IMG/VR virus record: IMGVR_UViG_3300035698_017437
Span: 77,961 to 141,960 of that record
DNA length: 64,000 bases
Source of the DNA: a virus
Reading direction: 5' to 3' (one strand)
Part shown: positions 7,540 to 8,524 of the stretch, in pieces
Position numbering within the stretch: position 1 is the stretch's first letter
Layout of the letters: each line of letters opens with the position of its first letter
Program-made: the position numbers and the translations under genes
Notes under the pieces: model-generated
What the model was told of the DNA's origin: nothing
Seen by the model: the letters and a program-made list of their open reading frames with translations, nothing else
Databases searched by the model: none

Positions 7540-8181
7540 ATGAGTGAAATTTCAATTACAAGAGCTTTAGTGAAAATCAAAACCCTTCGGTCTAAGATAG
7601 AAAAAGGATCAAAGGCAATGGCAGTTTGTTCAGGATATCAAATTCAGGGACAACCAATTATTACAAGAGCTGGTCAAGTAAAAAATGCTGATATTCTTCA
7701 AACAGATATTAGTAAACGATGGCAAGCTGTGAATGATTTGATGGATCTATATATCAAAATTCGAGAGGAGATCCAGAAATCTAATGCCGTTACTTTAGTT
7801 ACAGTTGGAAAAAATAAAATGACCGTAGCAAAAGCCATTTTCATGAAAGAATTAATCTCGGATGAACGAGTTCCCCTTGCCTCTGTTGTTCTGAAAGATA
7901 TCAATAACTCTAAACTACTGGTTCAGAAAAGGATAGAGGATAATGATGAACGACTAACCGAACTTATCAAAAGCTCATTTCAAGGGAAATCAACTAAAAT
8001 CTCTGATTCTGAATTTGAAGCAATTGCCAAACCTTTCAATAAGAATAACAAAGTTGAATTCATTGATCCTTTTGGTATGGAAACAAAAATTGAAAAGGTT
8101 ATTAATCAAAATGAAGAATTCCTTGAGGATATTGATGTTGTGTTAAGTGAATCTAACGCAAAAACAACGATTGAAATATAA
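7540..8181 (+). CDS. Coiled-coil protein, DIP1984/septicolysin-like family (tentative)
   Basis: GGAGG SD; repeated motif SITRAL / IQKSNAVTLV..MTVAKAI / LSESNAKTTIEI. Confidence 0.7.
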   Translation: MSEISITRALVKIKTLRSKIEKGSKAMAVCSGYQIQGQPIITRAGQVKNADILQTDISKRWQAVNDLMDLYIKIREEIQKSNAVTLVTVGKNKMTVAKAIFMKELISDERVPLASVVLKDINNSKLLVQKRIEDNDERLTELIKSSFQGKSTKISDSEFEAIAKPFNKNNKVEFIDPFGMETKIEKVINQNEEFLEDIDVVLSESNAKTTIEI

Positions 8182-8201
8182 GGGGAGTCATATCTAACAG
8201 A

Positions 8202-8209
8202 TATAAATA
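8202..8209 (+). promoter_or_regulatory. T4-type late promoter
   Basis: TATAAATA, 6 nt upstream of the structured RNA. Confidence 0.7.
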
Positions 8210-8215
8210 AGTACA

Positions 8216-8516
8216 TAAAGTATTATATTGAAACTGACTAAAAAGATATTCTCCTCAAATTGGAATAAGAGGTTAACATAAATTCCGCAACTAATTGCCT
8301 CAAACGCAATCTATTGATACAGCCTATAAAGCTGAACCGTTTCTGTAAAGTTTACAAAATCAAAAGATTAATGTTCAACAATTAGCGAGAAAAGTTTATA
8401 CAATTACACCAAGAAAAATTAGAGAATAAAGATTGATTGAATCTTGTGTATGGGTTTAGTAGGAAATTAGAATATCACGTCCTCAGTCAGTACCATCAAG
8501 CTGATAGAATACTTTA
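8216..8516 (+). ncRNA. ~300-nt highly structured ncRNA
   Basis: Nested long-range stems 8216-24/8508-16, 8233-39/8485-91, 8245-52/8469-76; local hairpins; possible pseudoknot; ends in a T-run. Confidence 0.75.
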
Positions 8517-8524
8517 CTTTTTAT

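Follow-up and report, generated by a model that had tools for sequence, protein, structure and literature searches.

GOLLD and ROOL are large ornate RNAs of phages and prophages that adjoin transfer RNA (tRNA) genes and whose function is unknown (PMC12286853). Here, we describe another structured non-coding RNA with tRNA genes as neighbours, found in a stretch of 64,000 nucleotides (nt) of virus DNA (referred to as the window) that represents the last 64 kb of the 141,960-base IMG/VR virus record IMGVR_UViG_3300035698_017437. The RNA (positions 8216-8516 of the window, 301 nt, + strand) is located just 3′ of a gene for a protein of 213 amino acids (aa) and 8 nt 5′ of a tRNA-Leu gene. Region 7540-8516, which comprises gene and RNA, is one copy of a widespread two-part module that consists of a gene for a helical protein of ~210 aa followed, on the same strand, by a structured RNA of 300-400 nt. 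The RNA of the window is a real, conserved and multiply pseudoknotted non-coding RNA of the + strand. The gene-plus-RNA pair is uncatalogued: no family of Rfam 15 matches the window RNA even at E <= 10, in agreement with the original prediction (made from the letters of the window alone) that it belongs to no recognised RNA class. In more than 45 other loci Rfam, searched with gathering as well as permissive cut-offs, gave only tRNAs and side matches, and literature searches on T5.085 (the member of the protein family in phage T5), DIP1984 and DUF6847 found no relevant paper.

With GOLLD and ROOL the window RNA has in common that it is a phage-borne, tRNA-adjacent and intricately folded large RNA, but it is smaller, has a constant protein-gene partner and belongs to a family with a periodic unpaired tract; neither of them is matched by the window RNA in Rfam at the gathering threshold or at E <= 10. 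The 5′ and 3′ ends of transfer-messenger RNA (tmRNA) pair with each other around pseudoknots and an open tract, as do those of the window RNA; SmpB is its dedicated protein and tRNA biology is concerned, as may be the case here as well. The YrlA-Rsr system, likewise linked to tRNA biology, contains a tRNA-like module within paired ends as well as a dedicated protein, and sub-threshold YrlA-like modules occur in some members of the class described here. In contrast with both, the window RNA has neither an acceptor/T-arm end domain nor a reading frame. No tmRNA or YrlA is found in it by ARAGORN or Rfam, and SmpB and Ro60 are unrelated to the window protein. The orphan RNA RAGATH-27 (RF03100; cut-off 76.1 bits) has no match in window 8100-8900 at E <= 10, the best match in the genome of the window (20.9 bits) lying outside the RNA, and none was found in more than 40 other loci. 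In one locus (L049) the full model matches very weakly (14.5 bits, E = 0.18) from the second base of the RNA onwards, which is suggestive but far below the cut-off.

In Bacillus evenly spaced triplets on single-stranded RNA are read by protein rings, namely by TRAP on the trp leader and by HutP on the hut leader, with a period of 7 nt in the latter. The RNA family described here offers a comparable row of short, evenly spaced unpaired units that would suit several identical protein sites. TRAP and HutP are beta-rich rings encoded elsewhere that act on cis-regulatory leaders, whereas here the tract lies within a knotted RNA, the unit is U-N-A-A-A-G-like and the putative binder is helical. The gp32 protein of phage T4 covers ~7 nt per monomer and binds cooperatively on unstructured A/U repeats of its operator. 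Like the window RNA, the gene 32 mRNA operator is part of a phage RNA in which an H-type pseudoknot (mentioned in PMC10690425) precedes an A/U-rich repeat tract without structure, but it lies in the 5′ leader and represses translation, while the element described here is placed 3′ of its gene and closed by long-range helices; gp32 is also unrelated to the window protein. The window RNA is a member of none of the TRAP, HutP and gp32 systems, which are its nearest working analogies. Abundant long non-coding RNAs near the tRNAs of phage K (PMC9241854) were considered as the same RNA and rejected: they give no match to R1, a covariance model of the 3′ domain of our RNA only, and gp233 is unrelated to the window protein.

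Architecture and covariation of the RNA

All sequence elements quoted in the original prediction are found in the window where it had placed them. The features of the locus, with helices named P1 to P3, are as follows.

7540-8181, + strand: gene of the 213-aa protein (ATG start, GGAGG ribosome-binding site upstream)
8202-8209, + strand: TATAAATA, originally proposed as a late promoter, not supported
8216-8516, + strand: whole structured non-coding RNA, from first to last base of the closing helix P1, 301 nt
8216-8228, + strand: 5′ strand of P1 (TAAAGTATTATAT), including the first originally proposed stem; partner 8504-8516, with one A.G mismatch
8216-8224 and 8508-8516, + strand: TAAAGTATT and AATACTTTA, this first stem, part of P1
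8229-8232, + strand: (C/U)GAAA junction behind P1, here TGAA plus A8233, a base that the following helix also uses
8233-8239, + strand: strand b, ACTGACT, 5′ side of the second stem; partner 8485-8491
8245-8252, + strand: strand c, GATATTCT, 5′ side of the third stem; partner 8469-8476, 8-base-pair (bp) perfect helix
8253-8286, + strand: H-type pseudoknot, with S1 formed by CCTC 8253-8256 and GAGG 8269-8272, and S2 by GGAAT 8262-8266 and ATTCC 8282-8286
8287-8344, + strand: variable region with two small hairpins read from the sequence, GCAA/TTGC 8287-8298 and CAGC/GCTG 8320-8334
8345-8430, + strand: A/U-rich tract aligned to the 7-nt array of the family (consensus Y-U-N-A-A-A-G), without consensus pairs
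8435-8446, + strand: conserved motif (family GATAAAATCC, here GATTGAATC) and 5′ strand of P2 (CTTG 8443-8446), with invariant A, A and C columns (alignment A4)
8461-8483, + strand: hairpin P3, AGGA 8461-8464 and TCCT 8480-8483, with c′ (AGAATATC, 8469-8476) in its loop
8485-8491, + strand: strand b′, AGTCAGT, partner of 8233-8239 in a 7-bp perfect helix
8497-8503, + strand: 3′ strand of P2 (CAAG 8497-8500) and GCUG junction (8500-8503), with G, C and G invariant (A4)
8504-8516, + strand: 3′ strand of P1 (ATAGAATACTTTA), from covariation and RNAalifold
8518-8522, + strand: T-run, read from the sequence
8525-8601, + strand: tRNA-Leu(UAG), from ARAGORN and Rfam, beginning 8 nt past the RNA

Between the stop codon of the 213-aa gene and tRNA-Leu, i.e. 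in 8182-8524, there is no open reading frame (ORF) of at least 60 aa. The ORF-free structured RNA of ~300 nt expected behind this gene has thus been found as a 301-nt RNA with covarying helices. From the aligned gaps a common architecture can be read, with the 5′ strand of P1, (C/U)GAAA, strands b and c, the H-type pseudoknot, variable hairpins and the heptad tract, followed towards the 3′ end by the GAUAAAAUCC motif, the 5′ strand of P2, hairpin P3 with c′ in its loop, b′, the 3′ strand of P2, GCUG and the 3′ strand of P1. P1 comprises 9-19 bp family-wide. In the (C/U)GAAA junction the G is invariant and the A's are nearly invariant (alignments A2, A3 and A6). P1 of the window RNA is flanked by TGAAA on its 5′ and by GCTG on its 3′ side as in the rest of the class. 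Its 3′ domain contains the AAAUCC-like motif, P2 and P3, with an interior of 50 nt that is slightly long compared with the constant 39-46 nt of the family. In total a knotted core results, in which the 5′ strand (b, c) threads into the 3′ domain (P2, P3) and to which the H-type pseudoknot belongs; its ends are clamped by P1, and an A/U-rich tract of 80-100 nt with ~7-nt units is left unpaired. The three perfect long-range stems of the original prediction are present and covary across ~30 unrelated phage lineages, but its description of them as nested has to be given up. Simple nesting does not apply, as b′ is enclosed by P2 and c′ is part of the P3 loop; hence b-b′ crosses P2 and c-c′ pairs into that loop.

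Thermodynamic folding of the window RNA alone is no better than that of shuffled sequences (z-score of the minimum free energy -0.53), and its features become significant because of the comparison with other loci, for which the protein alignment was used to collect another 80 loci from IMG/VR. In a plain MAFFT alignment of 23 lineages P1 + P2 are 91.3% paired, as compared with 61.3% for shuffled partners and 30-47% for slid ones; 14 of 15 pairs change on both sides, all 10 counted P1 pairs are compensatory, and the covariation score of 0.83 (vs 0.24) is reached by none of 500 shuffles. As an independent prediction RNAalifold gives only P1, P2 and two junction pairs beside P1, with nothing in the tract. 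On 61 distinct sequences in the R1 alignment, which is fitted to the model and hence leans toward the structure, P2 + P3 are 90.5% paired (slid controls 38-43%). P2 reaches 98.7% with 4 of 5 pairs covarying, and P3 79.5% with double changes in 4 of 4 pairs.

For b-b′ and c-c′, the 5′ and 3′ segments of each lineage were compared with cross-lineage chimeras in the same position-limited search. Helix parsing was anchored on motifs; automatic unanchored parsing had picked non-homologous helices. The helix score of b-b′ is 6.2 for self and 4.4 for cross-lineage pairs (P = 2e-13), that of c-c′ 6.6 and 5.6, respectively (P = 3e-6). Additionally, an unbiased scan of all column pairs between the 5′ and 3′ alignments (runs of at least 4 columns, at least 70% paired) yields just three anti-diagonal runs, which are P1, b-b′ (79% paired) and c-c′ (86% paired, 4.8 pair types per column). 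The pseudoknot formed by CCTC/GAGG and GGAAT/ATTCC, already recognised in the original prediction, is present at 8253-8286 and has homologous counterparts in other lineages. By eye, ~25 lineages show CCC..loop..GGGTTAA.. at the homologous place with a loop that pairs downstream and with differing S2 sequences, and a scripted search recovers fewer of them. The sequence of its S2 helix differs among lineages, yet its two sides remain complementary in most of them; S2 scores 6.4 for self vs 4.1 for cross-lineage pairs (P = 1e-14), a comparison that is biased by selection towards self pairs. Against mononucleotide shuffles the pseudoknot search is weak (mean z 1.7), and in the window an alternative pairing is available for this region.

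Within P1 + P2 there are 26 G.U but 3 A.C pairs, and therefore the functional strand is the RNA of the + strand. This bears also on the question whether the element could act at the level of DNA, as a set of origin iterons or as a protein-binding array. A short repeated motif that adjoins a gene which could encode its binding protein would suit such a function. It is nevertheless extremely unlikely, since compensatory changes keep helices up to 300 nt apart, only one of the strands tolerates G.U, the RNA is followed by terminators and tRNAs of its own strand and a period of 7 nt differs from the helical repeat of DNA.

Linkage of gene and RNA and the ends of the transcript

Of 71 loci, 65 have exactly one R1 match (E <= 0.1), which lies 3′ of the gene on its strand; of the remaining six loci four give weak matches with filters off. 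In the window R1 matches 8429-8511 (40.4 bits, E = 4e-6) as sole match in the 142-kb genome. The DNA downstream of the homologs, which the original prediction had named as the place to look, thus contains a conserved and covarying RNA behind the gene. From these matches gene and RNA appear to be almost always linked. All five annotated phages examined, which belong to different families, have a gap of 360-500 nt without annotated coding sequence on the 3′ side of the gene, which is located in or beside tRNA arrays; the window itself has 13 tRNA genes (ARAGORN). In the T5 record (NC_005859; L087) the RNA behind T5.085, with a predicted length of ~357 nt on the minus strand at about 43,146-43,502, is unannotated. 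A "stable RNA with unknown functions", rnaX (40848-41566), annotated ~2 kb downstream of the T5.085 RNA in the same record is a different RNA. The module was also detected on a Sporosarcina chromosome (GCA_038003045.1; L088:6001-6925), where the gene is followed by an RNA (R1 E = 0.003) with P1, a CGAAAAC junction, pseudoknot, heptads and 3′ domain. This means that it is not confined to phages with tRNA arrays. The Sporosarcina copy adjoins an ECF (extracytoplasmic function) sigma factor, a YoqH-like gene and metabolic genes, a neighbourhood that is not obviously phage.

A late promoter specific for the RNA, which had been proposed at TATAAATA, could not be confirmed. This octamer is not enriched in the window (17 occurrences vs 11.7 +/- 3.9 expected; 12 of 100 shuffles reach 17) and is not conserved in other lineages, where the gap between stop codon and RNA is mostly 3-20 nt. 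In the whole family the distance from stop codon to P1 ranges from 3 to 56 nt with a median of ~16 (8 nt in T5). As a promoter would not fit into the spacer of most lineages, the simplest reading of these distances is that the RNA is probably co-transcribed with the protein gene. On the opposite side the end of P1 is followed at a distance of a few nt by a tRNA in 10 of 64 unique loci, the window with its 8 nt being one example, and an intrinsic terminator follows ~10-30 nt past the RNA in 20 of the 64 according to a script, ~18 of them convincing. In L049 a sub-threshold match to twister-P1 (3490-3551; full model, 41.3 bits, E = 1.3e-5; cut-off 67.2) begins with the base adjoining the 3′ end of the RNA, and this putative twister-P1-like element could cut the RNA free.

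The variable region differs in length among lineages and can contain whole tRNAs or tRNA-like modules. Whole tRNAs were detected by ARAGORN in L010, L031 and L077. Sub-threshold YrlA-like parts (RF02553) are found in L060 (3197-3260, E = 2e-6), L039 (3239-3300, E = 2e-4) and L067 (1955-2024, E = 0.03). Just upstream of the protein gene of L039 a candidate for a phage tmRNA is located (2034-2441; 45.1 bits vs a cut-off of 47, E = 1e-14).

With such an arrangement, the RNA could be part of the protein's own mRNA and act in cis as its 3′ untranslated region (UTR), serving stability or feedback loosely like the T4 gene 32 element, with no free particle being formed. The very short distance from stop codon to P1, which is 3-20 nt in many lineages and too little for a separate promoter, the strict order of gene then RNA and the resemblance of a pseudoknot followed by an unstructured A/U repeat tract to the gene 32 operator (for its pseudoknot see PMC10690425) are all compatible with this. 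But a knotted, self-sealed fold of 300-400 nt with five helices exceeds the needs of known stabilisers or operators, and the element is placed past the coding region and not at the ribosome-binding site. Moreover, the ends of the RNA coincide with processing sites, and excision of the tRNAs contained in L010, L031 and L077 would cut the element from the mRNA. We consider a role as 3′ UTR rather improbable.

The periodic tract and the protein family

In the first 450 nt past the stop codon of the family loci the words AAGTTC, AAAGTT and TCAAAG are enriched 5-6.6 times, and the spacings from AAAG to AAAG peak at 7, 14, 21 and 28 nt across families. Over the whole family the match at lag 7 amounts to 0.46, with off-lag values of 0.20-0.26. 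Of 33 non-redundant lineages, 22 match best at lag 7 and a further 6 at lag 14. In alignment A2, which includes the tract of the window, A's are invariant every 7 columns. The third position of the unit logo is variable (A 0.31, C 0.26, G 0.12, T 0.31), and the logo favours neither NAA codons complementary to the anticodon loops of Gln, Glu or Lys tRNAs nor mimics of the T-loop. In four contigs from giant-virus bins (L052, L053, L058 and L073) the 3′ domain is located 700-800 nt past the gene, and the interval is filled by simple (GAAAAG)n repeats and repeated AGGAAAC..GTTTCCT hairpins, which looks like an expanded variant of the tract.

A repeat-bearing RNA adjoined by a protein gene is reminiscent of type III toxin-antitoxin pairs, in which a toxic protein is kept in check by a repeat RNA. 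Systems of the ToxIN type have the RNA upstream of the toxin gene, and its ~36-nt repeats are cut by the endoribonuclease toxin. Here, the RNA is found downstream of the gene, the units of 7 nt are part of a large folded RNA with no tandem array of ~36 nt, and the protein is a helical bundle without match to any PADLOC model. This alternative, raised in the original prediction, is therefore very unlikely, as is likewise the DNA-level element discussed above.

The window protein belongs to phrog_1491 (E = 9.6e-42), residues 1-213 covering positions 2-209 of the 211 profile positions and thus its full length. The name "tail fiber" given to this family looks wrong because its members are placed in the early/tRNA region and a copy is present on a bacterial chromosome. 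Searches of the window protein in Pfam, NCBIfam, PADLOC and PDB sequences gave no match of note. By tblastn the family was found in 709 phage records, every one with less than 60% identity to the window protein, and includes T5-like Demerecviridae, Vequintavirinae, Otagovirus, Bastillevirinae, Vibrio phages and jumbo Erwinia phages. When 1.84 billion cluster representatives were searched with the profile, 3,703 clusters reached E <= 1e-3 and 1,707 reached E <= 1e-30; among the 150 best clusters of the 3,703 the length is ~195-217 aa. The internally repeated SNAxT motif noticed in the window protein is conserved in the family alignment A1, with S81 and N82 of the first motif and N206 of the second being invariant and S205 nearly so. 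Conserved basic positions are R8, K14, K19, K22, R75 and K103. An AlphaFold (AF2) model with a predicted local distance difference test score of 87.6 shows a duplicated unit of helix and small beta-hairpin.

The nearest named cluster in the ESM Atlas is the DIP1984 family (PF20935, DUF6847), for which a crystal structure from Corynebacterium diphtheriae is available (3KDQ). Both families are helical and contain I-x-x-(S/T)-N-(A/S)-V-T followed by M-T-(V/L)-A-(E/D)-A, but DIP1984 has ~150 aa as compared with ~210 aa here, and the window family bears the motif twice. The A1 family profile matches 3KDQ with E = 0.018 over the SNAVT..MTVAEA region, and PF20935 matches 3 of 40 family members weakly (best E = 5e-4). 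The window protein itself has no PF20935 match at E <= 0.1 and is thus below the Pfam gathering score; Foldseek aligns it to 3kdq_C with E = 0.68 and TM (template modelling) scores of 0.23-0.31. These profile matches suggest that the window protein is a distant relative of DIP1984/DUF6847, and in this sense the DIP1984-like features pointed out earlier were rightly seen. No RNA partner of DIP1984 is described in the literature searched.

A putative protein-RNA particle and its neighbourhood

As judged from sequence conservation and linkage, the gene-RNA pair probably forms a protein-RNA particle, and we favour, with modest confidence, the reading that the two-part module gives rise to a dedicated putative particle of this kind. 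The RNA would be co-transcribed with the gene within transcripts of tRNA operons. Its 3′ end would arise where RNase P cuts at the following tRNA, which in the window is tRNA-Leu at 8525; in other phages a terminator, and in one phage possibly a self-cleaving ribozyme, would take this part. The knotted core would serve as scaffold and nucleation site, and several copies of the neighbouring protein would bind the periodic tract side by side and thus build the dedicated particle. The constant placement among phage tRNA genes points to a role in tRNA or translation biology, or in countering host defences that attack tRNAs. Taken as a whole, the picture is that of an undescribed ribonucleoprotein in large virulent phages, including T5, and in some bacteria, in which a DIP1984-like protein polymerises on the 7-nt rail of a scaffold RNA that is matured by the tRNA machinery and acts on tRNA or translation or against tRNA-targeting defences; in this complete form it can be proposed only tentatively.

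Several observations weigh against such a particle. The linkage of gene and RNA is equally compatible with a cis-acting 3′ UTR. The periodic unpaired centre of the original prediction stands as a conserved unpaired 7-nt array of the family with U-N-A-A-A-G-like units, but the spacing in the window is degenerate and not significant by itself (lag-7 match 0.365 vs 0.341 +/- 0.048, p = 0.35). Number and spacing of the units vary, and 6-nt GAAAAG repeats replace the heptads in some lineages. The protein family is near neutral (median pI 6.2), and fold searches with the window protein return only generic helical-bundle matches.

A protein that is not basic would also fit an RNA that acts without it. 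The RNA could then form an assembly of RNA only, similar to GOLLD or ROOL, or serve as sponge or decoy whose U-N-A-A-A units titrate a single-strand-binding protein, ribonuclease or anticodon nuclease of host or phage, the neighbouring protein being a chaperone or just a co-transcribed gene. Location at tRNA genes and ornate fold resemble GOLLD and ROOL (PMC12286853), and the YrlA-like tRNA mimics inside the RNA of L060, L039 and L067 point in the same direction. In contrast, the repeat motif is kept across phages of Gram-negative and Gram-positive hosts, so that its binder should either be present in all hosts or travel with the RNA, no companion other than the adjacent gene is constant, and Rfam gives no match to GOLLD or ROOL. 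We hold a protein-independent RNA to be unlikely, though worth serious consideration beside the protein-RNA particle.

The surroundings of the module in the window contain some further peculiar elements. Two adjoining genes at 5300-6867 resemble a phage-borne restriction-modification pair, the first encoding a protein of 162 aa (PADLOC REase_II, E = 2e-8; phrog_6927) and the second an Eco57I-type methyltransferase of 360 aa (PF07669, E = 4e-6). A conserved upstream cassette was considered and rejected: the 127-aa HEXXH protein and the 76-aa protein of the window are not homologous to the T5-like neighbours. Between tRNA-Gly and tRNA-Met a very stable 66-nt hairpin is located (8703-8768; GUUCCUCAGGAGG...CCUUCCUGAGGAAC; fold z-score -5.3) that contains GAUUCGAAUCC, a T-loop-like stretch. 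It is not called a tRNA by ARAGORN or Rfam and may be a degenerate or unusual tRNA-like element. The ORF of 201 aa at 9097-9702 consists nearly completely of ~8-residue repeats (TGSSCTFN-like) and is without family match; a repeat ORF on the opposite strand matches it.

If the proposed particle exists, T5 and hundreds of phages of the therapeutic type (T5-like, rV5-like, Bastille-like, Otagovirus and jumbo phages) would carry an unnoticed folded RNA together with a dedicated partner protein, both inside tRNA gene clusters. The RNA would represent a new class of large structured RNAs that combines a sealed knotted core with a periodic single-stranded rail. The orphan DIP1984/DUF6847 superfamily would obtain its first functional handle, and a widespread misannotation as "tail fiber" would be corrected. 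As T5 and Escherichia coli are tractable, the discreteness of the RNA, its binding by the protein and the effects of deletion would be directly testable.

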